In this document: positions 3,943-35,526 of the stretch, piece by piece
Layout: the number at the start of each line of letters is the position of its first letter
How positions within the stretch are numbered: position 1 is the stretch's first letter
Origin: Terriglobia bacterium
GTDB lineage: Bacteria; Acidobacteriota; Terriglobia; Versatilivoradales; Versatilivoraceae
DNA length: 64,000 nucleotides
Assembly (NCBI GenBank): GCA_965215235.1
Contig: OZ244053.1
Coordinates: forward strand, 2,471,192-2,535,191
Direction: 5' to 3'
Program-made: the position numbers and the translations under genes
The notes under the pieces: model-generated
Told to the model about the DNA's origin: nothing
Database searches by the model: none
Seen by the model: only the letters and a program-made list of their open reading frames with translations

Positions 3943-4007
3943 GTGGCTTGGCGGCTCTCCATGCCCAGGGTCGCTTGGTCGGGTTCGGCTCCAAAGGAGG
4001 GGCAATT

Positions 4008-6403: not shown

Positions 6404-6531
6404 AGGCCCGTGCGCGAGGTGGCGCAGATCGGGTTAAGGGCGATTGGCGGAGACGGAGATGGGATTGTCCCGTTGCCGTGGCAGTGGTAACATTCTACGA
6501 ACTCGAACACTGAGGATGAGGTGAAGGAGGC

Positions 6532-7581: not shown

Positions 7582-7619
7582 GGGTTGCCGGTGGTTCCAT
7601 AGGGGAATGAGCGCAGATT

Positions 7620-9605: not shown

Positions 9606-9664
9606 GAGGTCTTTCTTCCTGGGGTGGAGTCGTCATCTCGCAGCCCAATAGATGTTCAATCGGA

Positions 9665-11921
9665 GTGGTTGCAATGAAGAGTGTTCGATGGATGCCGGTT
9701 CTGGGAATCCTGTTGATTTCGGTTCCCGGCTTCGCCACCTCGGGAATCGCTGTCGAAGGCGCGGATCAAGCCGAACCTTTTGATTTCTCCCGGGACGTCG
9801 TCGGGGTCTTGACGCGCAACGGGTGCAACGGTAGTGAATGCCATGGCGGGGTCAAGGGACGCGGGGGCTTCAAGCTGTCGTTGCATGGAATCAATCCCAG
9901 GGAGGACTACCGCTGGACCGTCAAGGGCGGGATTTACCAGGTGCTATCCCCTGAGGCCGCGGAACCGTTTCGTCCTCGAGTGAACCTCGAAGAGCCGGAG
10001 CAAAGTCGCTTGCTCCTGAAACCCACCCTGAGGTTGCCCCATGGGGGCGGGCAGCGCTTCGAGCCGGGCTCAGCCGATTACCGGATTCTGCTGGATTGGA
10101 TTCGCCAAGGGGCTCCTTACGAAGCGGACGGCCAGGCGCCGTCTCGAATCGAGCGGCTGGAGGTTTTCCCCGGAAAGGTGATCGTGGAACCGGAGGCTCA
10201 GCGGAAGCTCCGGGTGACCGCTTACTTGTCGGATGGCCGAACGGAGGACGTCAGCCCCGAGGTGCTTTATGAAACCAGCGATCCCCAGGTGGTTTCCGTT
10301 GGCTCCACCGGCTTGGTCCGCGCGCTGAAACCGGGGCAGGCAATCGTCACCGTGCGAGCCGCTGGAAAGCTGGTTCATGTCCGATGCGGAGTCATTCGGG
10401 GCCCGGTCTCGGATTATCCGGAGGTCGTCAAGCACAATTTCATTGATGACCATGTCTTTGGGCGACTGCGGAAGCTGCATATTCTTCCGGCGGCTCTGGC
10501 AAGCGACTCGGCCTTCTTGCGGCGAGTCTGTCTCGATCTGACGGGGACCTTGCCGCCGCCTGATCGGGTGCGGGAATTCCTCGCTGACCGGAACCCTCGG
10601 AAACGAAAACATCTGATTGAACAATTGCTGAACTCGCCCCGATATGCCGACTATTGGACCTTCCGCTTCGCCGACTTTTTTCGAGTGGTCTATCGGAACG
10701 CTTATACCTACAAAGGTTGGATTCGACAAAGCCTGGCTCGGAACAAACCCTATGATCAAATGGCCCGGGAGCGCGTGGCGGCCCAGGGCAACGGGGGGGC
10801 CACGCGACATTTTATCAAGTCGGTCAGCGGGGAGGTCATGCTGCCGCACGAGAAAATGGGTGAGGACGTTCGAGTCTTCCTGGGTATACGGTTGGACTGC
10901 GCTCAGTGTCATGACCACCCCTACGAAACCTGGACCCAGGATCAGTTCTGGGGGATTACGGCCTTCTACGGCCAGTTGACTCGAATCAGGAACCTCTCCG
11001 TCTTCATGGACGATTCCGCCGGCAATGGTGAGCGGCCGGAAGGGTCTCGGGTGATTCATCCCCGTCGCAGGCAGGAGGTGGCTCCCAGGTTTCTGGACGG
11101 CTCGGTTCCGCCGACGATTGGTAATAACCCGCGGGAGCGATTGGCGGACTGGATGACGGCGCCGGGCAATCCTTACTTTGCCCAAGCCATCGTCAACCGG
11201 GTATGGGCTTACTTTTTCGGAAAGGGTTTCGTAGAGCCGGTGGACGATTTCAGGCCCGGTAACCCCCCGACCCATCCCGAGTTGCTGCAGGGCCCTGGCG
11301 GAGGATTTCCGGCGGAGCGGCTATGACCTCAAGCATCTGATGAGAGTCGTTGCTCAATCCAGAACCTATCAGTTATCCGGAGATCTCAATGAGACCAACC
11401 AGGAGGATGAGATCAACTACTCCAGGGCTCTGCCGCGCAGGTTGGATGCTGAGATCCTGCTGGATGCCATCTCTGACGTGACCGGCGTCCAGGAGACGTT
11501 CCCGGTCCACGACTACGTGGGCGGGGGGACGGAGCCCCTGGGAACCCGAGCCATTGACCTGGTTCCTGAAGTGACGCCTTCCCAATTTCTGGAAGTTTAC
11601 GGGAGACCTATCAGCCGAGACAGTATGCCGTGGCGTGACCGCCGATCCACCCTCAGGCAGGCGCTGCACCTGCTGGTTGGCTCCACTTACACCACCAAGA
11701 TTTCGGCGGAAGGCGGCAGGGTCGATCGCCTCTTGGCCCGCGGCGCCTCCGACCGGGAGATCGTTGAAGAACTTTATCTGGCGGCTTTTTCCCGGTATCC
11801 GACCGCTGAAGATAAAGCGGGGCTCGAAGCCTTGATGGAAAAATCCTCTTCGCGCAAGAAAGGCATCGAGAACCTGGCCTGGGGGTTGCTCGCCTCTCGG
11901 CAGTTTACCTATAATCACTAG
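9665..11921 (+). CDS. PSCyt2/DUF1549-DUF1553 (PSD) family protein, split by an apparent +1 G insertion at about 11287
   Basis: Signal peptide, then '[11 protein letters not shown]' and '[11 protein letters not shown]' (DUF1549). Downstream '[19 protein letters not shown]' (DUF1553) lies in the next frame. Removing one G from 'CAGGGCC' restores '...[24 protein letters not shown]...'. Confidence 0.8.
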
Positions 11922-17242: not shown

Positions 17243-18310
17243 ATGATCCTCGCCATCTGGCTACTGCTGCAGCTCCCACGAAGGATCTTTCGTTTTGTCA
17301 CCCGGGCCACCCGGCTTTCGATTGCAACGGTGTTGCTGGCTCTCTTTCTGATGGGTGCTCTCTTGATGCCGTTGTTCGAAGGCCCGGAGAGCCGTTTCGC
17401 TTCGCTGGGGGACTACGCCTGGTGGTTCGTTGTGACTGCCACGACCGTGGGTTATGGAGACATCGCTCCTGTCACGGTGGGCGGACGCTTGGTGGCCATG
17501 GGAATCATGTTGTTGGGCATCGGCGTGATCGCCGTGGCCGTGGCCAAGCTGGCCGAATCCATGTTTGATTTTGGGAGAAAGCGTATGAAAGGGTTATCTC
17601 AGCTCGATGAGCAGGACCACTTGGTTGTCTTCGGATACACCCCGGGAGCGACGGAGGAACTGGTGCGGGAAATCCGCCATGACAAGTCGGCCAGGCGAAC
17701 GCCGATTGTGCTGTGTTCCAGCCGCGCGGAAGAAAACCCCATGCCGGGCCAAGTCCAGTTCGTCAAGGCGGATTTGGGATTTGGTTCCCATGACGTTCTG
17801 CAGCGCGCCTGCGTCAGTCGCGCCAGCCGCATCATTGTGCACGGCCACGACGACAACGAAACCCTCATTGCCGCCCTTGCGGCCAGAAGCGTCAATGCCT
17901 CCGCCCATATTGTCGCGCAACTGGATCGGTCCGAGAGTGAGATGCACATCAAACGGATTGATCCCGGGATCGAATGTGTCACGCCCTTGGCCGTTCCGCT
18001 CCTGGTTCGGGCGGTGCAGGAACGGGGAGCAACCTCAGTGATCAACTCCCTGCTGAGTAACTCCAATGATGACACCATCTACCGCCTCGACATCCCCTCG
18101 AGTCCGCTCAGTTGGAGCTTCGGCAGGTTACAGCGTTTCTTCAAGGAAAAGCTGGGAGCGACGCTCATCGCCGTCGCCACCGATTCCGAAGCTCAAGGCA
18201 ATCTCAAGCTCAACCCGGCTTTCGATTTTCAGGTGCGTGCAGGAACGTCCCTCTTCTATATTGCGCCGGAGCGCCTGGATTCGAGCGCGATCGAGTGGCA
18301 GCGGATCTGA
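17243..18310 (+). CDS. Two-TM potassium channel with C-terminal RCK/TrkA-N domain (MthK-like)
   Basis: Selectivity filter 'TTVGYGD'. Downstream Rossmann-like 'LVVFGYTPGATEEL'. Divergent from the ADH gene. Confidence 0.8.
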   Translation: MILAIWLLLQLPRRIFRFVTRATRLSIATVLLALFLMGALLMPLFEGPESRFASLGDYAWWFVVTATTVGYGDIAPVTVGGRLVAMGIMLLGIGVIAVAVAKLAESMFDFGRKRMKGLSQLDEQDHLVVFGYTPGATEELVREIRHDKSARRTPIVLCSSRAEENPMPGQVQFVKADLGFGSHDVLQRACVSRASRIIVHGHDDNETLIAALAARSVNASAHIVAQLDRSESEMHIKRIDPGIECVTPLAVPLLVRAVQERGATSVINSLLSNSNDDTIYRLDIPSSPLSWSFGRLQRFFKEKLGATLIAVATDSEAQGNLKLNPAFDFQVRAGTSLFYIAPERLDSSAIEWQRI

Positions 18311-18451
18311 GTCGGGCTGAAAGCCGGCAGGCGCGAGCGTTTTCCGGCAGTGGTCTCTGAGGCCGCCGACCGCTGGTGTCCTGTCCCGGCTGAAACCGAC
18401 TCTCCCCGCAGGCGCGCCCCCTCGGAAGTCGAAGGCGAGACCCACCCCTGC

Positions 18452-18474
18452 ACTCCTCAGAGGAGTGCAGCTCC
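18452..18474. terminator. Perfect 11-bp-stem palindrome CTGCACTCCTC-AGA-GGAGTGCAG between convergent genes
   Basis: Read directly. Lies between the K-channel 3' end (18310) and the speE-like 3' end (18550). No T-tract, which is common in GC-rich genomes. Confidence 0.35.
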
Positions 18475-18549
18475 TCCCAGGAGGGGAATGAACTTCCCCG
18501 CAGGCTCACTCCCCGGAAAATCAAGGCCCGTGCAGCCTGAGGCCAATCG

Positions 18550-20128
18550 TCAGTTTCGCCAGGCTTGTCGATGGTACTGAAGAATGGTGGGTCGGAACTT
18601 GGTATTGACTTCGATGTGCGCGTCGTCGAGCCAGGTCTTGCCAAAGGCGGTGGCGGTCGACACCAGTTGCGCCGTGAGGTAGCCGGTGGGGGCGCCGATG
18701 GACTTCAGCCCCTCCAGCTTTTCCTTCATGGCGGCTTCACTGACCCCATGCAGCCAAGCCAGATGCCAGCCCCACTCTCCGAAGCTGGGAACGTTCTGGT
18801 GGTAGGGCAGAACCCGGTAGCCGCCCGCCCGCAGCGTTTTTCCAATGCAAAGGAAAATCTCCTTGGAATGATAGGGTGAGGTGGATTGCACCGCCAACAG
18901 ACCGGTTGGACCCAACTGGTAGGCGAGTTTCCGATAGAAATCCAGAGAATAGAGTTTGGCAGTGCCCACCGATCGTGGATCGGGAAAGTCGATGATGATC
19001 ACGTCGTAGGGCCCCCTGAAGCTTTGAACGAATTGGTCGGCATCGACGTTGAATACCTGGACCGTTGCCTGGGAGTACACGGCGCCGCTCAGGAAAGAGG
19101 CGGCCAGCTTGCTGGGCCGGGATACCGTCCGGGCTTCTCCGCCGGAGACCCCCAGCGCCGGCCGAAGGGCCACGCGGCCGTCCAGCAATGATCGCCGGTT
19201 GAGCTGAACCAGATCCGGATGAGTGGCGGCCCAGGTGGGTCATGGCGGGATCGATGTCCACCAGGTCGACCCGTTGCACCCGATCGTATTTCAAGACCTC
19301 TCTGAGAGCCAGACCGTCTCCCCCTCCCAGAATCAGAATTCTTCCGGGTGAAGAAGCCACGGAAAAGGGAACGTGGACCAGCATCTCGTGGTAGATGTGC
19401 TCGTCCCGGGAATTGAACTGCAGGTGGCCATTGATGAAGAGGCTGAGTCGGTCATGCTTGCGGGTCATGACGATGTGCTGGTGCTTGGAGGTCTGACTGT
19501 AGATGATGGGATCGCTGTAGGTCCTTTGTTCCAGCGATACCCTCCAATCCTCTGACAAACTCAGCAGACAAACCAACAGAGCAGCGCAGGCGCATGAGAG
19601 GACCAGGAGTTTCTTGAAGTGTCGAAGCAGGGGGCGGAAATAGGCAATTCCCAGCAAGGCCAGGAGGAGGTTGGCGCACCCCAGGGCAACGGCGATCTGG
19701 TTGATGGACAGATTGGCGAAAAGGACGAAGGTAAACAACAGCGCCCCCACCAGCGAACCCACGTAATCCATGCTCAGAATCTCGGAGAGGTTGGTTTTCA
19801 GGCTGGAGGAATACTCTCGATTGATGCGTATCAACAGGGGGATTTCGAGCCCGATGAGGACGCCGATCCCCAGGGAGAATCCCCAAAGCAAAATCATATA
19901 GCTGGAGGAATAGACGTAGGCCAGATAGATGAGCAGTGCGCTGACGCCTCCCGTCAGCCCCAGCAGGATCTCAACCAGCAGAAACTTGTCGACGAGATCG
20001 CCGCTGATGTTTTTCTGGAGGGTTGCGCCCAGGCCCATGGCGAACATCATCAACCCGATGACCACGAAGATCTGTTCGTGGGAGGAACCCATCAGGTTGT
20101 TGCCGAGAGCCCCCCAAGGTATACTCAT
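18550..20128 (-). CDS. speE: Membrane-anchored polyamine aminopropyltransferase (spermidine synthase-like) with N-terminal multi-TM domain; apparent G-insertion frameshift at about 19231
   Basis: N-terminal about 230 aa of hydrophobic helices, then 'ILILGGGDGLALREVLKYDRVQRVDLVDIDPAMTHL' (SpeE AdoMet motif). The C-terminal half 'HPDLVQLNRRSLLDGRVALR...DVIIIDFPDP' lies in the adjacent frame. Removing one G from 'CTGGGCC' gives a continuous '...AMTHLAATHPDLVQLN...'. Confidence 0.8.
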
Positions 20129-20216
20129 AGGCAATCCCGCAGGCCCCCCATGACGAACATGGACGCGGCCAGCACTTTCCGGGCGTGCCCAAATCGATTC
20201 ATCGGGCAACCTGCCT

Positions 20217-21109
20217 TCAAATCATAAAATAGATGATCGTCGCCATGCCGATGGCCACCACTCCCTCGATCCAGGCGGCTCCCAGGTTCTTGTCGACCGC
20301 AATCTCATGGGCAATGCTGTTTTGCGGCAGTAGCGCGTGATCGACGAGTTCACGCATCAGAAAGAGAACCACAAACCCGATGACCGTCAGGCTGACGTAT
20401 TCGGTGAGGCTGTTCCTGAAGGACTCGAAGTGGTGGGCTGTGGCCTTCAGCAATAGGATGCCCAGGGCGATCATGTTGCCTCCGAAAGCCACTCCTGCCG
20501 CTGCGTTGTCTTTCTCGATCTCAGCATGAATATCGTATTTCGTGATGAGCTGATAAAAGATGGAGAAGATCACCAACGTCACCTGACCCACAACGAAATA
20601 GCACGCGGCGGTGATGGCGCCGGTCCAGGGCCCCCGGCAAAGGCAGATTCAGGGGGAATGTCTCCATAGATTCCACCCGCCAGGATCAGAGCGGTGGCGA
20701 TATAGCCTCCACACATTACCGCTCCGGTCCCGACGTTTCTGTCCTCAACCAGTTCTTTGTAAATACTGAATTGGCGCAGCACCAGCTTGTCCAGGAGCTT
20801 TCTGCCCAGATTTAGCAAGAGAATACCGCCGAGGGCATAGGCAGCGTCTATCAACAGTTCGTGGATAAACCGGTCGAGGGCCGGAATGCCGCTGTCTGCT
20901 CCCGTGGCCGCCCCGAGGAAGATGATGATGACTCCAGCGTAATATCCGGTCAAACTCAGCCCGATGGCCGGGTTGTCCCGGGTTGTCAGCTCCCGGTCGA
21001 GAGAATAGGGCGTGAGCAGGTCGTTGACGAACTTCGCAATGATCAAAATGACCGCGCCGAGGACGACGTAGCACAGGCTGACTCCAAGATCGATCCAGTC
21101 CATAGTCAT
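20217..21109 (-). CDS. Tandem DUF350 membrane protein; apparent 1-bp deletion at about 20630
   Basis: Two halves each with four TM-like helices and a DUF350-like '...KYDIHAEIEKDNAAAG' pattern. Adding one base in 'GGGCCCCC' joins '...GGIYGDIPPESAFAGGPWTGAITAACYFVVGQVTLVIF...'. Confidence 0.65.
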
Positions 21110-22543
21110 TTGCCTCCGAAAGAGCGGCTTCCACCATAACGATAGGACCCGCCTCGGCCTCCGCTGCCGGCAGCTTGGTATCGAGATGATCGATACCCCC
21201 TGAGATTGCCGCCGCTCCGCTTGTAATAGGAGTTTCGATAGCCCCCGCTTCGCACATACTGAGAGGACCGATATCTGGAGAGGGTCGTCTGGCTATTGGT
21301 GCCGTAGCGGCGCTGGCCGGTCTCGGTTGTGCCGTAGTAAGTCCTTCCCGAAGTGTGGGATCGGCGATAGTCGTTGTAGTTGTTGGGATAGATGGGGTGG
21401 TAAGAGGGTCCCCAGAACAGGGAGCGCATGAACATATACTGGCCATAAAACACCCAGAAGGAACCCCCGTAGCTGTCCCTGCGCCATTGGCCGAACTGGT
21501 TGCTCTGTCCGGGGGGTGCAACGTAGGAATAGCCGGCCGGCTGAGCCAGGTCTTCCGCTTCTTCCTCATATTTCCCCGCCGGCTTGCGGGCTACCGACAT
21601 CCCCAGCTTGTCTTCCAGGACATCGTAGGTGGCTTTCGAAACCTGAACCCATGCCTCGCTTTCCGAGTGGGCGCCCTGTTTCTTTTGTGGGTCCTGGATT
21701 TGAACGGTTACCGTTTTGTACTTGTGGTGAAGGGTGAGCGCATCCCCTTCCTTGATTTCCATGTCGACTAAAATCTTATCCCAGGAGACGTAGAGTTGAT
21801 CCACGCGCTGGCCCAGCTCGCTGTCGAGCCGCGCCAGTTGCAGCCCGTCGGCTTGCAGCGTCTGGTGGGTATCCAAAATCAGAAGGACATCGGCATTGGC
21901 TGCGGCGATGGCTCCGGAGCGTTCTTTCCAAAGAGCCTTTGACCGGGCCTTGACTTCAGCCACTCGTTCGATGGCCTGACTCAAGTCGGCCTTTTTTTCG
22001 GGCCAGTCAATCATGGCTCTCTGAGCGCGGGAGACACTGGCGGCGGGATAGGCGGAGATATCTTGATAGCTCGCTTGCGCCTCTCGGACGTATTGGCTCC
22101 GATTCTTATCGATCTCGCTGATGGTCTTGGCCAGATCCGAAATCTCTGTGGCGTCCTGCAAGGCCCTGGGTCCGCTTTTGGTTCACTTGGCCGATCCGGC
22201 TTTCGATCTCCACCCGCAGTTCATTGTCGTTCTGACCGGCCAGTTCCTTGGCTTGGTCCAGTTCCCGGGAAGCCGACTCCATTTCCTGGTCTGAACGGGC
22301 AAGCCGGGCAAGCCACTGCTCGCGCTTGGACTGGAAGAGTGCCGGGTTGGAGTCGATCGAAGATCGCACGCCCTGGACCCGTTTTCGGTAATTGGCCAGC
22401 GAAGAACTCAACAACTGCTCAGCCGTCTCCAGATTGGCTCGGGTCTGTGGGTTCAAACCCCCGATCGAGATGGAGATGATCCCCACTAAAAGCGCCAGAA
22501 CAACCACTCCGGCCGAGGCGTAGAGCAATGACTTTTTGTCCAT
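21106..22543 (-). CDS. Membrane-anchored coiled-coil protein with C-terminal Y/G/R/S-rich low-complexity tail; apparent G-insertion frameshift at about 22164
   Basis: N-terminal TM helix 'LLYASAGVVVLALLVGIISISIGG'. Long heptad-like Q/E/R/L-rich middle. Tail '...GYRNSYYKRSGGNLRGYRSSRYQAAGSGGRGGSYRYGGSRSFGGK'. Removing one G from 'CAGGGCC' fuses ORFs 22106-22543 and 21106-22161. Has a 4-nt overlap with the DUF350 gene. Confidence 0.6.
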
Positions 22544-22552
22544 GGTGTCCTC

Positions 22553-23002
22553 CTACTGAACCACCGTCACTGACCGGCTCAATACGGCGGTGGACTCCTG
22601 GGAATAGTAGTGCAGGGAACGGACTTCCAACCCCTGTTGTAGAGGATCGACTCCTACCCGGGTCATCGGCGGAGCATGATCGGCTTTGGCCCGCGCAAAC
22701 TCCGAAGTGACTTGGACCTTATAGCGGGCAAGCTGCAATCGCGCCTGCTCCAGTCGCTCGAGTCCCGCGGCATCCCCGGTTTCGATTCGTCTGATTTCGA
22801 ACTCGAAGCGGAGGTCGTGGTCCCGGTACTTGAAGGGCTGCTTGCCGGTAAAGTCCGGCCCGAGGGAGAAAACCGGATCGATCTCACTGCGGGTGGCGCA
22901 AGAGAGCAACTCCGACCAGCGGCCACACTGGATGAGGTGACTGGCGCCGATCACGTGAACCTTGAAGTCGAGCTTGAGATGGCGAAGGGTGGCCGAGGAC
23001 AC
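22553..23002 (-). CDS. Hypothetical protein (149 aa) within the pspA-DUF350-speE operon
   Basis: ORF with a 9-nt gap to the next gene, same strand. No recognised family. Confidence 0.4.
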   Translation of the reverse strand: MSSATLRHLKLDFKVHVIGASHLIQCGRWSELLSCATRSEIDPVFSLGPDFTGKQPFKYRDHDLRFEFEIRRIETGDAAGLERLEQARLQLARYKVQVTSEFARAKADHAPPMTRVGVDPLQQGLEVRSLHYYSQESTAVLSRSVTVVQ

Positions 23003-23091
23003 GACAGTAAACGGGGATAAACTGATGGCTTCCCGAAACAGACAGAGCCGCAGGTTTTGGTGTGACGTGTCTTGATATTGTATGGTGAACC

Positions 23092-23706
23092 CTAGGCTCG
23101 AAATACTCTGACCCGGCCGGGGCTGATCTTTTCCGAGATGCCCACCTCGAACGGGTCGCCCTCATACTTCTCAATGAAGAGCTGCAGGTCGTCGCTCTCG
23201 AATTTCCAGAAGTAGAAACCCTCGCCCTCCGGACCATCATCCTTGAAATAACCTGCCTCGGCGCTTTCCCGGTAATACCATCGTTTTCCCTGAAAATCCA
23301 CGAAGCGGGACCGCGATCGCTCCTCATCCATCCGGGCCAGATCGTCCTCGCTGACGCCGATTTCTTCGAGGTGCAGATCACTCTTCCTCTGAATGCTGAT
23401 TTCCAACTCGTCGTCTTCGGACCACTCCACAAAAATTCTCTTGCCGCCCCAGAGACCGCTCAACTCGTACCAGTGATCGTCGCCGGACTCGTAGCGGTTC
23501 AGCCGATCGACGGTAAAGGAAATGTCTTCGTAGGTTTCGCTGGCGCCGGAGAGGATCAGGTTGTCCCCTCGACCCGCATCTTTGATGGTGAGGTTGGCCA
23601 GATCAGCCCTTTGCGGCAGCGCCTTTGCCTTGCCCTTCTTGCGCATCGCCATATAGAAGAGATAACCGGCCAAGCCCAGCAGGATCAGGATGAGGACGGT
23701 CTTCAT
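23092..23706 (-). CDS. N-terminally TM-anchored protein (DUF4178-like, tentative)
   Basis: 'MKTVLILILLGLAGYLFYMAMRKK' TM anchor plus about 180 aa acidic soluble domain. The DUF4178 assignment is tentative, based on position within the PspA/DUF350/SpeE-type neighbourhood. Confidence 0.45.
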   Translation of the reverse strand: MKTVLILILLGLAGYLFYMAMRKKGKAKALPQRADLANLTIKDAGRGDNLILSGASETYEDISFTVDRLNRYESGDDHWYELSGLWGGKRIFVEWSEDDELEISIQRKSDLHLEEIGVSEDDLARMDEERSRSRFVDFQGKRWYYRESAEAGYFKDDGPEGEGFYFWKFESDDLQLFIEKYEGDPFEVGISEKISPGRVRVFRA

Positions 23707-23732
23707 GATGGTGAGGCGCTGTTCCGCATGGC

Positions 23733-24428
23733 CTATGGAGATTTGGAGGTATTCAACTCGGCCTTCAGCTTGGCCAGTTCCGTGTCGGTGGTGGACACGT
23801 CCAACGCCGCGAACTCTTTGTCCAAATCCGGGTCGGCGCCGGCCGACATATTCTCATAAGCCTTGGCGGTAGCTTCTTCTCGGTTGACGGCTTCCTCGAA
23901 GCGCGAGATGGAAGCAAAGGCATTGTCGTCGTTTCCCAGACCGGTCATCACTTGGGCCATCTTCTTCTGGGCGTTGGCTGCGTTTTTCCTGGCGATCAGG
24001 GTGCTGGCTTTGCGCTTCGACTCGTCGATTTTTCGCCGGAGCTGTTCCACCTGGTTCTTGAGCTTGTCCCGAGCCGCTGCGCCTTGCTCCACCGCCGCCT
24101 TGAGAGACGCCGCCTGCCCGTCGCATTCACCCTTCTTGGCCAAGGCCTTCCGCGCCAGATCCTCGTTGCCTGCCAGAAGGGCCTTTCTTGCTTTTCCTTC
24201 CCAATCCTTGGACTGTTCAAGGAACTTGCTGTACTCGGCTTCGAGACGATTGCAGTTGCTCATGGCATCGGCGGCCGATCGGATCACCTTGTGAAGCTGA
24301 TCCTCCATATCCCGAATACTTTGCCGCAGGGTCGACTCGAAGGTTGCATCCTCCAATTTGTCAACGCCTTCATTGAGTTTGCCTTTGCTCACTCGAAACA
24401 ATCTGTCCAGAATCCCCATCGTATTCAC
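23733..24428 (-). CDS. pspA: PspA/IM30 family protein (phage shock protein A-like)
   Basis: 'MGILDRLFRVSKGKLNEGVDKLED...' N-terminus and all-coiled-coil 231 aa sequence typical of PspA/Vipp1. Confidence 0.85.
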   Translation of the reverse strand: MNTMGILDRLFRVSKGKLNEGVDKLEDATFESTLRQSIRDMEDQLHKVIRSAADAMSNCNRLEAEYSKFLEQSKDWEGKARKALLAGNEDLARKALAKKGECDGQAASLKAAVEQGAAARDKLKNQVEQLRRKIDESKRKASTLIARKNAANAQKKMAQVMTGLGNDDNAFASISRFEEAVNREEATAKAYENMSAGADPDLDKEFAALDVSTTDTELAKLKAELNTSKSP

Positions 24429-24499
24429 TCCTTAAATTGGTGAAACCCTTCCCAGAAACAAGCGGATAGCGCAGACGGTATCTCCTCGGCCTCTGATCC

Positions 24500-24913
24500 T
24501 CAGGCGCCCCGAGTCTCTTTCAAGAAGTCCCTGGCCTCGCAAGCATCCCCGATCAAAAAACTGATGCAGGACAAGATGTCGTCCCGATCGTCCTCGCCCA
24601 AGCTCTGCAGCTTGGAAAAGTTGTTCAGGGTAATGGCGGTCTTGCCGTTTCCCAAGTCGTAAAGCTGAAAGCTGGAGGTGGAGATGCCATTCTGTGCATC
24701 CAGCATCTTGGACATCAAGGTTCCCGTGACCGATTGCGAGTCGACCACCATGCAGGAAACCGTATTGAACAGAATGTCCTGCTCCAGCACGCAGGAGACT
24801 GAGATCCCACTTTCAAGGTCTCTGAGCTGCAGGGTGTCGCCTTCCAGTTTCACAATCTCGTAACCCGCACCGGCAACGATTTCCTCAACCACGTCGATCG
24901 ACGGACTCTCCAT
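24500..24913 (-). CDS. YbjN/DUF2170-like small acidic protein (first gene of the psp-like operon)
   Basis: Start at 'MESPSIDVVEEIVAGAGYEIVKLEGDTLQLRD...' (ATG 24913). Composition and size resemble YjfI/YbjN-type proteins. This is a weak family call; the longer ORF to 25072 has an implausible N-terminus. Confidence 0.4.
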   Translation of the reverse strand: MESPSIDVVEEIVAGAGYEIVKLEGDTLQLRDLESGISVSCVLEQDILFNTVSCMVVDSQSVTGTLMSKMLDAQNGISTSSFQLYDLGNGKTAITLNNFSKLQSLGEDDRDDILSCISFLIGDACEARDFLKETRGA

Positions 24914-25554
24914 TCCGAAACCTCCATGACGAACGATCCCAACCAAAATCGTAATTGCCGTATTATTGCAGCAATAGCCGGGATTATCAATGCCGGCAGG
25001 ATCTTTTGTGCGAGGTCGAAAGCCTGCTCTCATTCGGACAGATACCGGACACCTGTCAGGGGCGTGCAGCAATCGAGATTAGGACGATAGGCTGGTTCCA
25101 CCGGGAGAATCGGTAGAGAGATCATCCACGACTTGCGGCCCAGCTTCGCCAGCGGCGGGTGGCTGGTCGGCCAGGGTCTGCCGATGATCGGCAAGTTGCT
25201 GGCCACAACCAGGCGCATAAGATGGCCGCTATGCCCCTCTCGCCAATGATCCCCTCAAAGCCGCCGCCAACGGCGTCGCAAGCCGGATAGCCGAGGTGGC
25301 GGAATGGTTTCTGATCACGACGCCGGTCAGAACTTCTCGTCGGCGGTGCATTCCGTCGATGGATTTTCTTCGCGCCCCTGTGGTAATCGCATATTATGAG
25401 CATAATCGGGGTAATGATGTTCGAGTGGAGCAAGGCTGAAAACCAGGCGGACATCCACACGCCCAGACGATGAACCGGACGATGCAGAAGACAAGCCGGA
25501 CTGGAATCGAGCGGCTTTCGCCGGCAGCCTGAAATTCAACCGGAAGGAAGGTGC

Positions 25555-27600
<2,046 letters not shown>

Positions 27601-27676
27601 AGAACAAGACGACAGCTTGAAACTTCAACTGGCTAGACTTATAATCTAGCCAAATTCATCCTGGGTGGAGGCGAGT

Positions 27677-27931
27677 ATGACCGATTGGCCGTTGCAAGAT
27701 GCCAAGAACCGTTTCAGCGCCGTTGTGGATGCCGCTCTCGCCGGGAGCCCGCAGCGGGTGACTCGACGGGGCAAACCCGCCGTGGTCATTCTGGCGGTGG
27801 ATGAGTACGAGCGTCTGCGCAATGCAAAGAGGGCGAACGCGCCGACACTTGCGGATTTGCTCCTCTCCATCCCCCAAGACGACAAAGAGTTCGAACGGCT
27901 TCGACTTCCGACCAGACGGGCCGATTTCTGA
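27677..27931 (+). CDS. vapB: Phd/YefM-family antitoxin
   Basis: 'MTDWPLQDAKNRFSAVVDAALAGSPQRVTRRGKPAVVILAVDEYERL' with GGAGG 7 nt upstream. Stop overlaps the vapC start. Confidence 0.75.
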   Translation: MTDWPLQDAKNRFSAVVDAALAGSPQRVTRRGKPAVVILAVDEYERLRNAKRANAPTLADLLLSIPQDDKEFERLRLPTRRADF

Positions 27932-28344
27932 TGTTTCTGATCGATACCGACGTACTATCGGCGCTCCGGAGGCGGAAGCGCAACCCCGATGTCGTCCGAT
28001 GGATGGAAGCTCAACGTACGTCGGACCTGTACATCAGCGTGGTGACCGTTGGCGAGATAGAGCGTGGAGTCGCACGGCAGCAGAGCCGCGACCGGACGTT
28101 CGCGCTGACGCTGGCCGCTTGGCTGGACGGTGTGCTGTCGCTGTACGGTGACCGCGTTCTCGGCGTTGACGTCTCCACGGCGCGCCGCTGGGGCCAACTG
28201 TCCGGCTCGCTTGGACACGAAAGCGCAGACTTGCTGATCGCCGCCACGGCGCTCGAACACGGTTTGACCCTGGTGACCCGGAATGTCGGGCGCTTCGAGC
28301 CGACGGGCGTCCCTGTGCTCAACCCGTTCACTGTTGAAGTATGA
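27931..28344 (+). CDS. vapC: VapC PIN-domain toxin
   Basis: 'MFLIDTDVLSALRR...' PIN domain with conserved D residues, 137 aa. Confidence 0.8.
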   Translation: MFLIDTDVLSALRRRKRNPDVVRWMEAQRTSDLYISVVTVGEIERGVARQQSRDRTFALTLAAWLDGVLSLYGDRVLGVDVSTARRWGQLSGSLGHESADLLIAATALEHGLTLVTRNVGRFEPTGVPVLNPFTVEV

Positions 28345-28382
28345 TTCACGATGCCTCAAATCGGCCGTTGGGAGGACGCACG

Positions 28383-28694
28383 ATGATCCCGGCAGTTGCC
28401 GAGCACGCCGCTGAACTGGAGTCGATCTGCCAACGCTACAGCGTGGCGCGGCTTGACCTGTTCGGCTCGGCGGCCACCGGCAAGTATCGACCGGAGGACA
28501 GCGACCTGGACTTTCTGGTGGAGTTCCAGGAGTTGCCCGCCGGAGGCCACGCAAGCGTCTATTTTGGCTTGCTGAAGTCCCTGGAGCGGCTCTTCTTTGG
28601 GCGGCCCGTGGACCTGGTGGTGGAATCGGCCATCAAGAACCCCTATTTCCGGGAATCGGTTGAAGAAACCAGGGTGATGATTTATGCGGCGTGA
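28383..28694 (+). CDS. MNT-type nucleotidyltransferase antitoxin (HepT/MNT module)
   Basis: 'LDLFGSAATGKYRPEDSDLDFLVEF' minimal nucleotidyltransferase motif (GS...D.D). GGGAGG upstream of ATG 28383. Confidence 0.7.
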   Translation: MIPAVAEHAAELESICQRYSVARLDLFGSAATGKYRPEDSDLDFLVEFQELPAGGHASVYFGLLKSLERLFFGRPVDLVVESAIKNPYFRESVEETRVMIYAA

Positions 28695-28965
28695 AGCCGG
28701 AAAATACCTATGGGACATACAGCGCGCCATCGGTTTGATCCAGGACTTTACCGATGGCAAGACCTTTGCCGACTACCAGTCCGACGTCATGATGCGCTCT
28801 GCTGTAGAACGGCAGTTTGAAATCATCGGTGAGGCCATGACCCAACTGGCAAAACTTGCCCCGGCCCTCGCCTCCCGGATAAGCGAATGTGAGCGGATTA
28901 TCGCTTTCCGCAACGTCCTGATTCACGTCTACGCTGATGTGGATGACATACGGTATGGGATGTAG
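28684..28965 (+). CDS. HepT (DUF86) toxin
   Basis: 'RNVLIHVY' R(x4)HxY motif. Overlaps the MNT gene by 11 nt. Confidence 0.7.
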   Translation: MRREAGKYLWDIQRAIGLIQDFTDGKTFADYQSDVMMRSAVERQFEIIGEAMTQLAKLAPALASRISECERIIAFRNVLIHVYADVDDIRYGM

Positions 28966-29020
28966 TGGAGAACAATCCGCCAACCCTCAGCCGCGAGATT
29001 GACGCCCTTCTGGAGGAAGA

Positions 29021-29266
29021 ATGACCGTCCAAGAACTTACCCGGTTGCTGGCAACCTATCCACCCGGCTTGCGCGTGGTCGTGAGCGGCTATGAAGAGGG
29101 CTACGACGACCTGTCGCCAGAACAGATATCGGTGGTGAAGATTTGCCTGAACACCGGGACCGAGTCCTGGGTGGGACAGCACGAAGAGCCAAACCTTCTG
29201 ACGGGAGGACTGCCCGACGACGCTGAGATCGTCGAGGCACTAAGTTTACGGCGAGTCTCTAATTGA
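29021..29266 (+). CDS. Hypothetical small protein (81 aa)
   Basis: ORF with GGAGGAAGAATG start context. No family recognised. Confidence 0.35.
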   Translation: MTVQELTRLLATYPPGLRVVVSGYEEGYDDLSPEQISVVKICLNTGTESWVGQHEEPNLLTGGLPDDAEIVEALSLRRVSN

Positions 29267-29270
29267 TGAA

Positions 29271-29379
29271 GATGACCCTCCTCACTGCCCAGTGGCGGGA
29301 GCAGCAGACAGAAGCCGTGAGGCTCAGTGCCGCCATTGCGGTCAATCTTAAGAGCCTTACCTTTGGAAAGCTCTGTTGA
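29271..29379 (+). pseudogene. Duplicated, diverged hsdM 3'-end remnant ('[37 protein letters not shown]')
   Basis: Aligns with the real hsdM C-terminus at 27496-27600 ('[34 protein letters not shown]'). The 20-nt 'CCCAGTGGCGGGAGCAGCAG' is identical. Confidence 0.65.
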
Positions 29380-29388
29380 GGACTACGC

Positions 29389-30396
29389 ATGAGCTCGGAA
29401 TTTCAAAAGCGGTTGACCCTCTTAAATGCCGATTACGAGCGTGTCGCTGGTTCTCCCTGTCGCCGTTTCTTTTGTCCAATTCTTTACAGGGACGAGGACA
29501 CTGAACTATGCCGCGCCCACGTGATCAATAGGTCATTCCGGAACTCTGACCGCTCGTGGACCATCCAACGGGCCGATGTCGATGCCTACTACGGCAGCCT
29601 GTTCGAAGCGGAGTTCCTGGCCATGCAGGAAAAAGACCGTCACCAAGCGGATGAAGCTCTGGCTGACAAAGACCTTGTTCGACAGCTAAAGCCGAAGATC
29701 GTCTTGGACGGTGAAGAAGTAGATTACTATTTCCCCCAAGGCCACGTGCCACCGGAGCATTCGGAGGCGACGTTATTCGCCTCAGGAAAAACTGCTCGAT
29801 TGGCACTTAAGCTACCACCAGCCGATATGCTGACCGTTCCAGATGGGAAATTAGAGATTCACATTGATAGGAATCTCCAACTCCCAGCGCTGGCATCACT
29901 TCTCAAGGTCGCGCACCTAACCCTGTTTCATCTGCTTGGATACCGATATGCGCTGTCGGCTAGTGGGCACTTTCTTGGCAAGACCGTGTTAGGTGATTTC
30001 TTTCTAAAGACTCAGAGCATGGGTCGGGCCTCTGTTCTTGTTCAGGCTGAGAGTCACTTTCAAGAATTCACCAACATGGTCCGTCCAATTCTCTCAATGT
30101 CGCCGTATTCTCAGGGCACTTTGACAGATCATTTTCTCTACCTCTGCATGAGAGGAAGTCAACCTTGGGCTCTTCAAGTCCTGATCCGAACCGCTGACCA
30201 CTTGTACGCTGTGATGGTACCCATCATAGACGAGAGCGAAGCGGCCGTTCGGTTTGTCGATTTCCTTAAATCGTCCTCCTCAGAGATTGAGATGAAGCTT
30301 GCTCGATGGAAAGGAGATGCTTGGGAGGTTTCTCCGAAATCGGAGATGCACGTTTGGCCGGAAGCGCTGTTCGATGCTGAATTGCCGACAACCTAA
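29389..30396 (+). CDS. Hypothetical protein (335 aa) embedded between hsdM and hsdS; N-terminal Cys/His cluster 'CRRFFCPILYRDEDTELCRAHVINRS'
   Basis: Strong ORF, lower GC than surroundings, start context 'GAGGACTACGCATG'. No recognised domain beyond a weak HNH-like C...C...C..H spacing. Confidence 0.6.
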   Translation: MSSEFQKRLTLLNADYERVAGSPCRRFFCPILYRDEDTELCRAHVINRSFRNSDRSWTIQRADVDAYYGSLFEAEFLAMQEKDRHQADEALADKDLVRQLKPKIVLDGEEVDYYFPQGHVPPEHSEATLFASGKTARLALKLPPADMLTVPDGKLEIHIDRNLQLPALASLLKVAHLTLFHLLGYRYALSASGHFLGKTVLGDFFLKTQSMGRASVLVQAESHFQEFTNMVRPILSMSPYSQGTLTDHFLYLCMRGSQPWALQVLIRTADHLYAVMVPIIDESEAAVRFVDFLKSSSSEIEMKLARWKGDAWEVSPKSEMHVWPEALFDAELPTT

Positions 30397-30407
30397 GGAG
30401 CTCGGGT

Positions 30408-31709
30408 ATGACGGGTGAGTGGCGCAAGGTGACGCTGGGCAGTGTGATTGACCTTAAACTCAGCAGTGTGGACAAGAAGTCGAAAGAAAGTGAGCGCTCT
30501 GTCCGTCTTTGCAACTACACGGATGTGTACAACAACAACTTTATTCATGGTGCCCTCGACTTCATGGCGGCAACCGCGACTGAGCGAGAGATCGCAAATT
30601 GCACACTGAAGGCTGGAGATGTTGTCATTACGAAAGATTCCGAAAAACATGACGACATCGGTGTTCCTGCACTGGTCCGAGAAGACATATCCAATCTGGT
30701 GTGTGGCTATCACTTGGCAATTCTTCGACCCTCCTCATCAGAAATTGACGGGGCCTATTTGTTTTACGCGCTGAGTGCGAGGGCAATGCAAGAACAGTTC
30801 CATTCATATGCAAACGGTGTTACTCGATTTGGATTGCGGAAGGCTGACATCGGTCTCGTTGAAGTCCCCCTTCCTCCCCTCCCCGAACAGCGTGCCATCG
30901 CCCACATCCTCGGTACGCTGGACGACAAGATCGAACTGAACCGGCGGATGAACGAGACGCTGGAAGAGATGGCGCGGGCGTTGTTCAAGTCCTGGTTCGT
31001 GGACTTCGATCCCGTCCGAGCCAAGATGGAGGGCCGCGACACGGGCCTGCCGCCGGACATCGCCGCCCTCTTCCCCGACCGCCTCGTGGACTCGGAACTG
31101 GGGGACATCCCGGAGGGGTGGGAGGTGAAGGCGCTACCTGAGACGATTGAAATCAACCCAGCACGGTCGCTACAAAAGGGTGAGGTTGCCCCATATCTCG
31201 ACATGGCGAATATGCCAACGAAGGGTCATACCCCCAATGCAGTGACTGCACGGCCCTTTGGCTCGGGTATGCGTTTTATCAACGGAGATACGCTTGTTGC
31301 ACGTATAACGCCGTGTCTTGAGAACGGCAAGACAGCCTACGTCGACTTCCTACAGGATGGCGAGGTCGGATGGGGGTCAACCGAGTATATCGTCATGAGA
31401 CCCAAACCTCCGCTCCCTGATGAGTTCGCATACTGTCTTGCGCGTAGTGTTGATTTCCGCGAGTTTGCAGTTCAGAACATGACCGGGACGAGCGGGCGGC
31501 AACGTGTCCCTGCCACCGCCATGTCAAACTACCAACTACCGCTTCCCGGTGGATTTGAGATCACGGAAGTATTTGGAGAGCTAGTTGAGCCTCTTTTTTC
31601 GCTTGCTTCTCAGAAAGCAGAGGAATCCCGTACCCTCGCCGCGTTGCGGGATACACTGCTGCCGAAGCTGGTGTCGGGGGAGTTATGGGTCGGGGATGTG
31701 AATAGTTAA
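30408..31709 (+). CDS. hsdS: Type I restriction-modification specificity subunit HsdS (two target recognition domains)
   Basis: Conserved central and C-terminal coiled-coil 'LPPLPEQRAIAHILGTLDDKIELNRRMNETLEEMARALFKSWFVDFDP' and '...LRDTLLPKLVSGEL'. Two variable TRDs. Confidence 0.85.
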   Translation: MTGEWRKVTLGSVIDLKLSSVDKKSKESERSVRLCNYTDVYNNNFIHGALDFMAATATEREIANCTLKAGDVVITKDSEKHDDIGVPALVREDISNLVCGYHLAILRPSSSEIDGAYLFYALSARAMQEQFHSYANGVTRFGLRKADIGLVEVPLPPLPEQRAIAHILGTLDDKIELNRRMNETLEEMARALFKSWFVDFDPVRAKMEGRDTGLPPDIAALFPDRLVDSELGDIPEGWEVKALPETIEINPARSLQKGEVAPYLDMANMPTKGHTPNAVTARPFGSGMRFINGDTLVARITPCLENGKTAYVDFLQDGEVGWGSTEYIVMRPKPPLPDEFAYCLARSVDFREFAVQNMTGTSGRQRVPATAMSNYQLPLPGGFEITEVFGELVEPLFSLASQKAEESRTLAALRDTLLPKLVSGELWVGDVNS

Positions 31710-31712
31710 CCA

Positions 31713-33002
31713 ATGGTCAGAACCTCTATGTATGAAGCTAATCGGCCCGTTCCCCTCGGAGAAATGGAGATCGAGTTCGTCATCGATGGACGATCCGTCC
31801 GAGCTCGGGCGAGAGCCGTCGAATACCTGCTCCCCCATCCGATCCTTGCCTTGGAGGTAAGCGATGTTCCTCGGGAACCTTGGTCTGTTGAGCCTGCGGC
31901 TGAACGGCCCAACGTCAAGATATTAAGCGCTCCCGTGATGTCTGAAGGACCTTCAGGTATCACCTTGGAGAATGGCATACAATTGGATGTACTTCCTTTT
32001 TCGTGGGCAGCTACTCAGCGGGATGCCACCCTCTACCTCGCGCAATCACCTTCTGTTGTCTTACAGACGGGCAGTCGCCTCGAGTCTTTACAATTCAATA
32101 TCCTCAACTTTTCGAGGGATTTGCCTTTCGGAACAGTTGCCTTAAACGCTGATCCATGGGCGATAACCATCTACTCGGTTCCAAGTCTTAACAAACTCAA
32201 GGAAACACTCAGAGCTGATGGAGGATACGCTGTCACTCATAACGGGGTAATCAAACTTCGGGGTGACGACACATTCTCTGTCGAAGAAGTTATGGATCTA
32301 CTCTATGGGTTGGATGATTTCCTTTCATTTGTGTGTGGATCCTACTGTTCGCTAACCAATGTGGTTGGCATTGAAAGTGAGGATAATGAAGCCTGGAAAC
32401 GATGGGGATCACATCATGTATCGTCGTGGGGTCACCACCGGTCTTGGTTTGACATTACTGTCGGTGGTGCGCTTTTGGAAATCTTTCCGGTCTTCTGGCA
32501 GGAGTACAAGAAAAACACGAAAACTCTGAGTAGGGTTTTGAAATTGTACGCACATAGCAACGAGACCTTTTCCATAGATGTGAGTTGTATTCTCAGCCAG
32601 ACTGCCCTTGAAATGCTTTCCTACCTAACGGTCGGTAGCCAGACAAACCAAGAAAAACCTGGTCAGTGGATAGAGAGAGCTCTCAATCAGGCTGGAATTC
32701 CCTTCGTAATTTCTCCCCAATGCAAGGATTTGGAGGGGTTCCGCCAGCAAAATCGGCTGACGCATGGGCCACACGCATTAGTTGAGATTCGGAACTCAAT
32801 CATTCACCGCAATGCAGGGCATGGCGATATTCCCTTCGATGTGTATCGCGAAGGGTCCCAACTGGGACTGTGGTACATAGAACTAATGCTATTGCAAAGA
32901 TTTGGTTATACGGGTAAATACGCAAATCGTCTGGAACCGGTGGGATTTGCTGGCCGTACCGAGCCTGTTCCATGGGTATCAGGCCAAGGAGTCAACCCAT
33001 GA
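31713..33002 (+). CDS. Hypothetical protein (429 aa) embedded between hsdS and hsdR
   Basis: Strong ORF starting 4 nt after the hsdS stop, low GC. No Walker A, so not PrrC-like. Its stop overlaps an hsdR-start remnant (ATGA). Confidence 0.6.
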   Translation: MVRTSMYEANRPVPLGEMEIEFVIDGRSVRARARAVEYLLPHPILALEVSDVPREPWSVEPAAERPNVKILSAPVMSEGPSGITLENGIQLDVLPFSWAATQRDATLYLAQSPSVVLQTGSRLESLQFNILNFSRDLPFGTVALNADPWAITIYSVPSLNKLKETLRADGGYAVTHNGVIKLRGDDTFSVEEVMDLLYGLDDFLSFVCGSYCSLTNVVGIESEDNEAWKRWGSHHVSSWGHHRSWFDITVGGALLEIFPVFWQEYKKNTKTLSRVLKLYAHSNETFSIDVSCILSQTALEMLSYLTVGSQTNQEKPGQWIERALNQAGIPFVISPQCKDLEGFRQQNRLTHGPHALVEIRNSIIHRNAGHGDIPFDVYREGSQLGLWYIELMLLQRFGYTGKYANRLEPVGFAGRTEPVPWVSGQGVNP

Positions 33003-33049
33003 CCACCATCACCAAGGCCGACGCCAAGCAGGCCGCCCCTGGACCCTGA
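32999..33049 (+). pseudogene. hsdR 5'-end remnant 1 ('MTTITKADAKQAAPGP*')
   Basis: 'ATGACCACCATCACCAAGGCCGACGCCAAGCAGGCC' parallels the real hsdR start 'ATGACCACCCTCACCGAAGCCGACGTCGAGCAAGCGGCC' at 35527. Confidence 0.55.
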
Positions 33050-33060
33050 GAGTGTGAGCG

Positions 33061-33612
33061 TTGAGCAGCCGCTACGACCCGGAATGCCATCACCGGCGCT
33101 CCATCCGGCTGAAGGGGTACGACTACACACAGCCGGGTACCTATTTCGTCACTCTATGCACACGCGACCGCAAGTTTCTGTTCGGTGATATCGTGAACGG
33201 CGCAATGTGTTTGAACGATGCAGGGAGACTGATCGCCGATGCGTGGAAATGGCTGTCGATTCAGTACCCTTACGTGATGTTGGACGAATACGTCGTCATG
33301 CCTAATCATCTGCACGGCATCATTGTGATCGCCGACCATCGTAGGGGCGGTTCGCGAACCGCCCCTACCCCTATCCGTCGTAAGCCCTTGGGAGGTCTCA
33401 TAGGCGCATTCAAAACCACCGCAGCCAAGCACGTCAACCGTATCCGTAATACGCCCAATCAACCCATTTGGCAGCGCAACTATTACGAGCGCGTCATTCG
33501 AAATGAGAACGAACTGGACCGGGTTCGGGAGTACATAATCAGCAATCCAGCGCGGTGGGCTTTCGATTCCGAGAACCCGCTGGCCGCAATGCCCAAGGAA
33601 AAGGACGCATGA
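33061..33612 (+). mobile_element. REP-associated tyrosine transposase (RAYT; IS200/IS605 Y1 transposase-like)
   Basis: 'GTYFVTLCTRDR', 'MPNHLHGIIVI' (HuH motif) and 'QRNYYERVIRNE' (catalytic Tyr region). 183 aa, typical RAYT size. Confidence 0.8.
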
Positions 33613-33677
33613 CCACCCTCACCGAAGCCGATGCGCTCATCGCGCTGGAGAAGCGCCGGATAGATGCGACCGAATGA
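33609..33677 (+). pseudogene. hsdR 5'-end remnant 2 ('[22 protein letters not shown]')
   Basis: First 24 nt match the real hsdR start. ATGA overlap with the RAYT stop. Confidence 0.55.
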
Positions 33678-33822
33678 GATTACCCGGACTTCGGCGGACC
33701 GGTCACAGTTCCGTTGGTCTCGATCGACGGGCTCGAATCATTCCTTCTTGATCTGCGCCGGGCGCGGACCGACCTCGACAAGGGCACCTGCCCAAACCGC
33801 GGCCGGCAGGTCGTAGTCCCTC

Positions 33823-34047
33823 GTGCGGCTGGATTTTGGTGGCACGCCACATCGCAACCCGGACGGGGAGCAAGCCGGGTCACCGCGCCTCCATCTTTAC
33901 CGCGAGGAATTTGGCGATAAGTGGGCGTTTACCGTCCCGAGCGACCGATTCACGAACTTGGACGATCCATGGCAAACGCTTGAAGACTTCATGCGGTTCT
34001 GCAACATCGTCGAACTGCCCGTCATCCGGAAGGGGCTGTTCACATGA
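33823..34047 (+). CDS. Hypothetical small protein (74 aa)
   Basis: ORF whose stop overlaps the next gene's start (ATGA). Confidence 0.25.
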
Positions 34048-35502: not shown

Positions 35503-35526
35503 TTCATCGGCTCTCTGAGATTTACT

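Follow-up and report, generated by a model that had tools for sequence, protein, structure and literature searches.

What kind of system is encoded where a PspA-type protein shares an operon with a polyamine-type enzyme and a DUF350 protein, and is that operon still whole when three of its genes are broken as sequenced? PspA-type proteins are bacterial relatives of ESCRT-III that protect membranes, and in Escherichia coli, Shewanella, Pseudomonas and Mycobacterium tuberculosis they are repeatedly found in genetic association with polyamine-type enzymes and DUF350 proteins, a puzzle that has been recognised before. Both questions are raised by seven co-directional genes, here called A to G, in a 64,000-nucleotide stretch of contig OZ244053.1 from a Terriglobia bacterium (positions 2,471,192 to 2,535,191 of the forward strand; this whole stretch is called the window, and its own numbering is used throughout). 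The host belongs to Candidatus Versatilivoraceae, an uncultured acidobacterial lineage of sponge-type symbionts. We find no new kind of system here: comparative genomics has previously defined this class of PspA neighbourhoods (Popp et al. 2024, mSystems, PMC11237479), and the locus adds one more example, in which the gene order is hybrid.

Conservation of the seven-gene operon

The genes lie on the minus strand, from the ATG of gene A at 24913, which is preceded by a GGAGG ribosome-binding site, to the stop codon of gene G, which ends at 18550. An initial annotation of this DNA had the seven co-directional genes and both outer coordinates exactly right. It had also put every gap or overlap at 10 nt or less, which by our measurements is true of only some junctions: 80 nt between A and B (71 nt with a GTG start), 26 nt between B and C, 8 nt between C and D if D starts at the ATA at 23083 (89 nt with a GTG start), 9 nt between D and E, an overlap of 4 nt (ATGA) between E and F, and 14 nt between F and G. 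A consensus scan identifies, some 50 nt ahead of gene A, a sigma-70-like promoter on the same strand (24962..24990; TTGATA-17 nt-AATAAT with a TG extension, 10 of 12 consensus matches), of which the -35, the -10 and the spacer are kept in nine Versatilivoraceae loci while the more distal upstream sequence is not. The tight spacing, the ATGA overlap of E and F and the conservation of this promoter allow us to conclude with high confidence that the seven genes are a genuine operon transcribed from it. The conserved spacer is partly palindromic and overlaps the -10 (TATTGC-T-GCAATA in the window, GCCATT...AATGGC in relatives), and may be a candidate operator; there is no regulator gene inside the operon to pair with it. 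A search of positions 18000-25700 against Rfam returned no RNA family.

The best matches to the locus are chromosome-scale metagenome-assembled genomes labelled Candidatus Versatilivoraceae, Versatilivorator, Terriglobia or Acidobacteriota. L001, the nearest of them, has 87.7% identity across 6.5 kb, and in 11 loci (L001-L010 and L012) all seven genes are intact and colinear at approximately 78-88% nucleotide identity; three shorter contigs hold whatever part of the operon they cover. More distant neighbourhoods were found by looking up distant homologues of gene E. The series A-PspA-C-E-DUF350-SpeE, without D, occurs in a distant acidobacterium (L017), where it is joined by a K+ channel, and in a myxococcote (L020). 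Shorter arrangements are A-PspA-C-E alone (L018 and L021), DUF4178-E-DUF350 without PspA or SpeE (the P0068 contig) and DUF4178-E alone in a Bacteroidota genome (L022). Found in 11 full loci and, without D, in L017 and L020, this order is conserved far beyond chance. The initial proposal of a conserved co-directional cluster of PspA, DUF350 and membrane SpeE, which had been made dependent on synteny in relatives, is thereby supported.

C and E are adjacent even where A and PspA, or F and G, are absent. Genes C and E are thus the invariant core of the arrangement across phyla, to which the A-PspA and F-G pairs are addable modules. Among the loci examined, only the Versatilivoraceae version has gene D, which encodes a DUF2617 protein.

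Frame breaks in genes E, F and G

As sequenced, gene E is divided into open reading frames (ORFs) of 145 and 351 aa, gene F into 176 and 124 aa, and gene G is spread across four frames. The initial annotation had read each of these genes as a single ORF, overlooking five frame-breaking insertions. We located them by alignment to the orthologous loci L001, L006 and L012: there are six extra G in five coding-strand G-runs, at 22166 (+1), 20631-20632 (+2, in a run of three G), 20149 (+1), 20115 (+1) and 19232 (+1). Removal of these six bases yields ORFs of 478, 296 and 549 aa for E, F and G respectively, sizes seen in every relative, where the orthologues are intact (F, for example, as single ORFs of 296 aa). 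The repaired genes contain no premature stops and no other lesions. Parsimony, with L006 and L012 as outgroups, was used to divide the substitutions in E, F and G combined between the window and L001 branches. The window branch receives 53 nonsynonymous and 81 synonymous changes, compared with 94 and 123 on the branch of the intact L001. By these counts selection on the three genes appears purifying, and not relaxed, on the window branch.

Two related contigs indicate what assemblies of this kind can produce. L023 and L024 are public contigs of the species of L006, a sister species of the window's, and match its intact locus at 97.4-97.7% identity. In L024, which has 2x coverage (coverage values are taken from contig names of the pattern 'ctg_coverage_x'), the operon and its short flanks (3900-10520, 97.4% identical to L006) carry 11 one-base insertions and 2 deletions, mostly in G/C runs. 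In L023, with 32x coverage, there is a single insertion, at 8812, which splits gene E. Comparison of both with the intact L006 identifies insertion-biased homopolymer errors as a property of this kind of assembly.

Frame-breaking homopolymer insertions are present elsewhere in the window as well. One interrupts a PSCyt2/PSD1 gene near 11290 (+), another a DUF1501 gene at 13208 (+), whose reading frame is repaired by deleting one C of GGCCCC, and a probable third lies in an FG-GAP gene near 45566 (-). Seven of eight break sites in the window are at or beside GGCC, and several overlap CCWGG.

Taken together, the restriction of the events to insertions in G-runs, the lack of other lesions, the unrelaxed selection and the occurrence of breaks in unrelated genes lead us to read the breaks in E, F and G as, most likely, homopolymer-length errors of the assembly; the organism probably has seven intact genes. 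The competing possibility is a decaying operon, in which E, F and G are true pseudogenes that arose by slipped-strand insertion of G, for example during a mismatch-repair-deficient episode, leaving only A-B-C-D at work. The distribution of the breaks speaks for decay and against assembly error: with break detection outside the operon dependent on less sensitive ORF-merging heuristics, at least eight frameshifts were counted in the window, and five of these are packed into 4 kb, in three adjacent genes (P ~5e-5 by length). Moreover, the other broken genes (PSD1, DUF1501 and FG-GAP) come from expendable multi-copy families, several long genes in other parts of the window are unbroken, and modules lacking F and G occur naturally. 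Against decay, every event is an insertion, including one of +2 within only three G, and neither stop codons nor a nonsynonymous excess have accumulated on the window branch. The same signature appears in the 2x contig of a species that has an intact reference copy, and the genes are intact in all 11 related genomes. On balance we consider decay unlikely. Programmed frameshifting or transcriptional slippage was also considered and rejected, since the breaks involve five different short G-runs, one of them with +2, and none is present in the orthologues. Apparent pseudogenes in this assembly are best read as homopolymer errors until reads show otherwise.

Proteins of the operon

The two proteins of the constant core each carry one membrane anchor. 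Gene C (23092..23706) encodes a protein of 204 aa with an N-terminal transmembrane (TM) anchor and a DUF4178 domain (PF13785, 39.2 bits). Its isoelectric point of 4.8 fits the 'TM-anchored acidic protein' of the initial annotation. Because the basic run RKKGKAK directly follows the TM segment, the charge distribution places its N-terminus outside and the DUF4178 domain, by prediction, in the cytoplasm. The product of gene E (21106..22543, 478 aa after repair, split by the extra G at about 22166) is signal-anchored and probably exported. It combines a long helical bundle and a beta-rich core with a tail of 93 aa, 68% of which is Gly/Ser/Arg/Tyr and whose last residues are RSFGGK; this is the TM-anchored coiled-coil protein with an RGG/YG tail of the initial annotation. 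The end of the tail, either RSFGGK or FGRR, is conserved in the family. Two basic residues precede the single TM segment, a lipobox is present in one homologue, and the charge distribution predicts an orientation with the N-terminus inside and the body outside the cytoplasm. The motifs of the core are DWPxKK, QLYxSWDKILVDME and KPAGKY...SFWVFYGQYALMR.

No Pfam family, DUF4247 included, matches gene E, and an AlphaFold2 model of its orthologue P0001 (predicted local distance difference test, pLDDT, 85) has no significant neighbour in the PDB. An alignment-profile search gathered 122 proteins, of which the labelled ones come from Acidobacteriota, Myxococcota, Bradymonadia or Bacteroidota; the search was aimed at a link to Ctha_1186 / SO_3762 and returned no named Chloroherpeton or Shewanella protein. 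The tail was considered as a substrate of the enzyme encoded by gene G, an idea that we down-weighted because the tail persists in loci with neither F nor G nearby.

Upstream of this core is the pair formed by genes A and B. Gene A (24500..24913) encodes an acidic cytoplasmic protein of 137 aa, which in its AlphaFold2 model (pLDDT 93.8) adopts the alpha-beta(5)-alpha fold of YbjN and CesT-like type III secretion chaperones. In a Foldseek comparison of this model with the PDB, the top match is E. coli YbjN (6vu7, E=2e-4, TM-score 0.58-0.72). The other neighbours are AmyR, Pseudomonas aeruginosa BacA (8q8o, PA14_16140), SicP, ExsC and CesT, and all six structural matches have a probability of 1.00 and TM-scores of 0.55-0.72. 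A UniRef homologue that is 50% identical carries the name 'YbjN domain-containing'. By sequence, gene A has no Pfam match even at E<=1 and no NCBIfam match, fails to match the YbjN and DUF2170 families of Pfam (PF10722 or PF09938), gives only noise against PDB sequences, and aligns with E. coli YjfI in hhalign at a probability of 0.1. Of the earlier label 'YbjN/DUF2170-like', the YbjN half is therefore upheld by the Foldseek fold comparison, and the DUF2170 half finds no counterpart in the hhalign sequence comparison. Gene B (23733..24419, 228 aa) is a PspA/IM30 protein of the ESCRT-III superfamily, as had been annotated: it matches PF04012 over positions 1-218 of 220 at 152.8 bits, against a cut-off of 33.9, and is 85-95% identical across 14 related loci.

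Gene D (22553..23083) encodes a DUF2617 protein of approximately 176 aa. It corresponds to the orf149 of the initial annotation, which began at the GTG at 23002 and can now be assigned to PF10936. The longer version has an N-terminal extension of 30 residues that is kept as protein in all relatives, and matches positions 5-159 of the 160 in the family profile (48.2 bits); the 149-aa version covers only positions 31-159. At the corresponding start codon the window and five relatives have ATA, two relatives TTG, one ATG and one ATT, with GTC and TTA in the two other sequences of the 12 compared. Gene D thus probably starts at the near-cognate ATA at 23083-23081, 8 nt past the stop codon of C. 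A near-cognate start of this kind suggests an initiation that is deliberately weak or coupled.

The remaining two genes encode polytopic membrane proteins. The product of gene F (20217..21109, 296 aa after repair, split at 20631-20632) has eight TM segments and two DUF350 (YjfL) units, so that its initial description as a tandem DUF350 protein holds: the repaired protein has two full matches to PF03994 (179.4 bits), and each half also matches alone. Gene G (18550..20202, 549 aa after repair, split at 20149, 20115 and 19232) encodes a 7-TM domain joined to a SpeE-like aminopropyltransferase. After repair, residues 7-548 match NF002956/PRK03612 at 580.8 bits, above the cut-off of 472, which bears out the spermidine-synthase-like enzyme with a polytopic membrane domain seen in the initial annotation. 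Before repair, positions 1-56 and 68-178 of the Spermine_synth profile are matched on different ORFs. The score against the fused MFS/spermidine synthase family NF037959, 29.8 bits, is below its cut-off of 40.

The motifs GGGDG, D-I-D, DFPDP (DxxDP) and Q..DE..YHE of gene G align with those of Plasmodium falciparum spermidine synthase (4uoe). Its catalytic domain contains a subfamily-specific insert of approximately 35-40 aa that is kept in L017 and L020; the possibility that this stretch is a foreign insertion was rejected because it is conserved as protein in these distant homologues. Between sequences that share only about 50% identity, those of L017 and L020 included, the polar and charged residues of the TM domain do not vary. 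In three divergent sequences, 9-12 Lys/Arg residues (12 in the window) are found in the N-terminus and alternate loops of the TM domain, with none in the remaining loops. Under the positive-inside rule, this charge distribution predicts that the catalytic domain lies outside the cytoplasm; the most conserved loop of the TM domain is also on the predicted outer side. This predicted outside location of a domain that depends on decarboxylated S-adenosylmethionine (dcAdoMet) is the most interesting point of the locus.

Proposed mechanism and alternatives

The explanation that we find best overall, and regard as probable though far from assured, is that this operon of a published class is a trans-membrane envelope-stress module that couples PspA to aminopropyl transfer. 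The mechanism as a whole is offered with low confidence. The C-E pair would span the membrane as one unit and report the state of the envelope or pass it on, and PspA (gene B) would be the effector that binds, stabilises or remodels a stressed inner membrane. Gene A could serve as a chaperone or negative regulator that restrains PspA or the operon, with BacA as a precedent. Gene F, with its double DUF350, and gene G would make up a membrane-embedded chemistry module, and D (DUF2617) would be an additional cytoplasmic component. Because all dcAdoMet-binding and catalytic motifs are kept together with a conserved, polar-rich membrane domain, we propose that G would transfer aminopropyl groups to an acceptor at or in the membrane rather than supply spermidine to the bulk cytoplasm.

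Several points weigh against this explanation. The sensor role of C and E and the interaction of A with PspA are suggested by co-occurrence and fold, and the envelope-stress function, both of this operon and of its close relatives, is itself deduced. The predicted extracytoplasmic position of the catalytic domain of G is awkward for any model of aminopropyl transfer: dcAdoMet is not known to exist outside the cytoplasm, and the window contains no AdoMet decarboxylase gene. It is conceivable that G does work extracytoplasmically, its 7-TM domain supplying the donor or acceptor, and that it aminopropylates a lipid head group, a cell-wall amine or E. We think this quite improbable; if true, it would be an undescribed modification made beside an ESCRT-III-like repair protein.

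A simpler account would place the operon in an ordinary polyamine pathway, with G as a membrane-tethered spermidine or spermine synthase, DUF350 exporting or handling the polyamine, the product coating and stabilising the envelope, and PspA merely co-regulated. The score of G above the NCBIfam equivalog cut-off and its retention of putrescine-type catalytic motifs are in keeping with this account, as is the known existence of membrane-stabilising polyamines (cited in Popp et al. 2024, PMC11237479). The membrane domain of G is, however, conserved in the manner of a functional domain and not of an anchor, the catalytic domain has its subfamily-specific insert, no speD or other polyamine gene is nearby, and the predicted topology puts the catalytic domain outside. 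Membrane-fused SpdSyn-like proteins clustered with DUF350 are said to fail to complement an E. coli speE mutant, and their hosts reportedly lack spermidine. This account appears to us improbable. An anti-phage defence module is more doubtful still, and we give it hardly any credence. It is prompted by the name 'phage shock' protein and by an adjacent island of type I restriction-modification and toxin-antitoxin genes: the start of HsdM lies 640 bp upstream of the operon on the opposite strand, HsdM-like genes are found upstream in several relatives too, and toxin-antitoxin-like pairs and HsdR follow. Yet the composition of the operon is kept amid quite different neighbours in L017, L018 and L020, and it includes no nuclease, NTPase or other typical defence effector. 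PADLOC gave only noise, namely weak coiled-coil matches and one generic methyltransferase (Rossmann)-fold match, with no defence system. A module that links PspA to aminopropyl transfer continues to be the explanation that we prefer.

Neighbouring genes

Convergent with gene G is a gene for a K+ channel (17243..18310, plus strand), identified by Pfam matches to Ion_trans_2 and RCK/TrkA_N. It adjoins the operon in the window and, among close relatives, only in L001; in L017 it closes the operon, in the same direction as the other genes. A ligand-gated K+ channel has been reported in a related cluster of the E. coli type (Popp et al. 2024, PMC11237479), and the channel may be a recurrent accessory partner.

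On the other side of the operon, the HsdM gene (25555-27600, +) encodes a type I methyltransferase with a complete DUF559 domain, of Vsr-like endonuclease fold, at residues 432-538. This domain is inserted in frame inside N6_Mtase, which consequently matches as two stretches. Beyond it, 27665-38652 is an island of defence or mobile type adjoining the operon. It begins with an antitoxin-like ORF and a 137-aa ORF that form a putative VapBC-type pair (27665-28344), followed by a small overlapping pair, putatively nucleotidyltransferase/HEPN (28341-28965). The island also contains a C-terminal DUF6978 fragment (33817-34044), DUF1828/DUF1829 (33984-34805) and HsdR (35503-38652).

Relation to known systems

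Popp et al. (2024, PMC11237479) suggest that systems of this class monitor polyamine levels or the aminopropylation of other substrates, and the envelope-stress reading adopted here matches their published in-silico inference and is not new. The initial annotation had likened the operon to E. coli yjfIJKLMC, which is of their third group, and this likeness stands in part. Sequence-level sharing is limited to YjfJ with PspA (27% identity, E=3e-5) and YjfL with DUF350, to which can be added a chaperone fold in the first gene, a polyamine-related enzyme in the last and, as the sole likeness of YjfM to gene E, export and a Ser/Gly/Arg/Tyr-rich C-terminal tail. Counterparts of YjfK, YjfM and YjfC are absent: BLASTP or hhalign detects no homology between A and YjfI, C and YjfK or E and YjfM, nothing corresponds to the ATP-grasp of YjfC, and no GspS-like ATP-grasp, DUF1190 or DUF2491 Pfam domain is present in the operon proteins. 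YjfL has one DUF350 unit where gene F has two, and YjfC is an ATP-grasp peptide-spermidine ligase whereas gene G encodes a predicted dcAdoMet aminopropyltransferase.

The closer relatives are Shewanella oneidensis SO_3762-SO_3767 and M. tuberculosis Rv2597-Rv2601. In the supplement of PMC11237479 the S. oneidensis cluster reads LipoSIG+Ctha_1186+Low-comp, YjfL, TM+Spermine_synth, CesT_Tir-DUF2170, PspA, DUF4178 and RHH, and represents the second major group of Popp and colleagues. The window has the content of that group: it shares the CesT/Tir-like protein and PspA pair, DUF4178, the 8-TM DUF350 protein, the 7-TM spermine-synthase-like (Spermine_synth) enzyme and an exported protein whose tail is of low complexity. 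The order differs, since Shewanella begins with the exported protein, DUF350 and SpeE and has the pair and DUF4178 last. The chaperone-like protein of Shewanella is a DUF2170 protein, whereas gene A matches no Pfam model, and the window has DUF2617 in addition but no RHH regulator. Gene E would fill the slot of the Ctha_1186 lipoprotein by role, being exported, with a low-complexity tail and, in one homologue, a lipobox.

In the same supplement the M. tuberculosis cluster reads TM+DUF4178, DUF2617, SIG+DUF4247, YjfL and TM+Spermine_synth. The last five genes of the operon follow this order of types, including a membrane SpeE of the PRK03612 kind. The M. tuberculosis cluster lacks the pair of PspA and chaperone-like protein, and its exported protein is DUF4247, which gene E does not match. 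The extra components remarked on in the initial annotation are indeed present, but DUF2617 and the exported tailed protein were already known in the Shewanella and M. tuberculosis variants. In the literature on Rv2597-Rv2601 and the yjf genes we found no functional data beyond the ligase activity of YjfC/YgiC and the work on BacA.

BacA, a negative regulator of its own operon whose loss affects rhamnolipids, swarming and biofilm, belongs to the P. aeruginosa bac operon (PA3732-PA3729). There, as in the window, the gene for a protein of YbjN/CesT fold directly precedes that of a PspA homologue; the downstream partners are of band-7/flotillin type (PMC11237479), without DUF4178, DUF350 or SpeE. 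With the canonical Psp (PspF-PspABCDE) and LiaIH systems the window shares the PspA/IM30 superfamily effector. No PspB, PspC or PspF was found among Pfam-scanned ORFs within approximately 10 kb, and the neighbourhood has no LiaI, LiaF or LiaRS. Gene B falls well short of the equivalog cut-offs for both PspA (TIGR02977, 100.2 against 243 bits) and LiaH (78 against 380 bits).

By domain content and order, then, the locus reads as the M. tuberculosis arrangement prefixed by the CesT-PspA pair of the Shewanella type, with E apparently in the place of DUF4247 or Ctha_1186. Its novelty is modest and lies in the constant core of C and E and in the predicted topology of G, to be set beside a well-conserved further variant of the known class.

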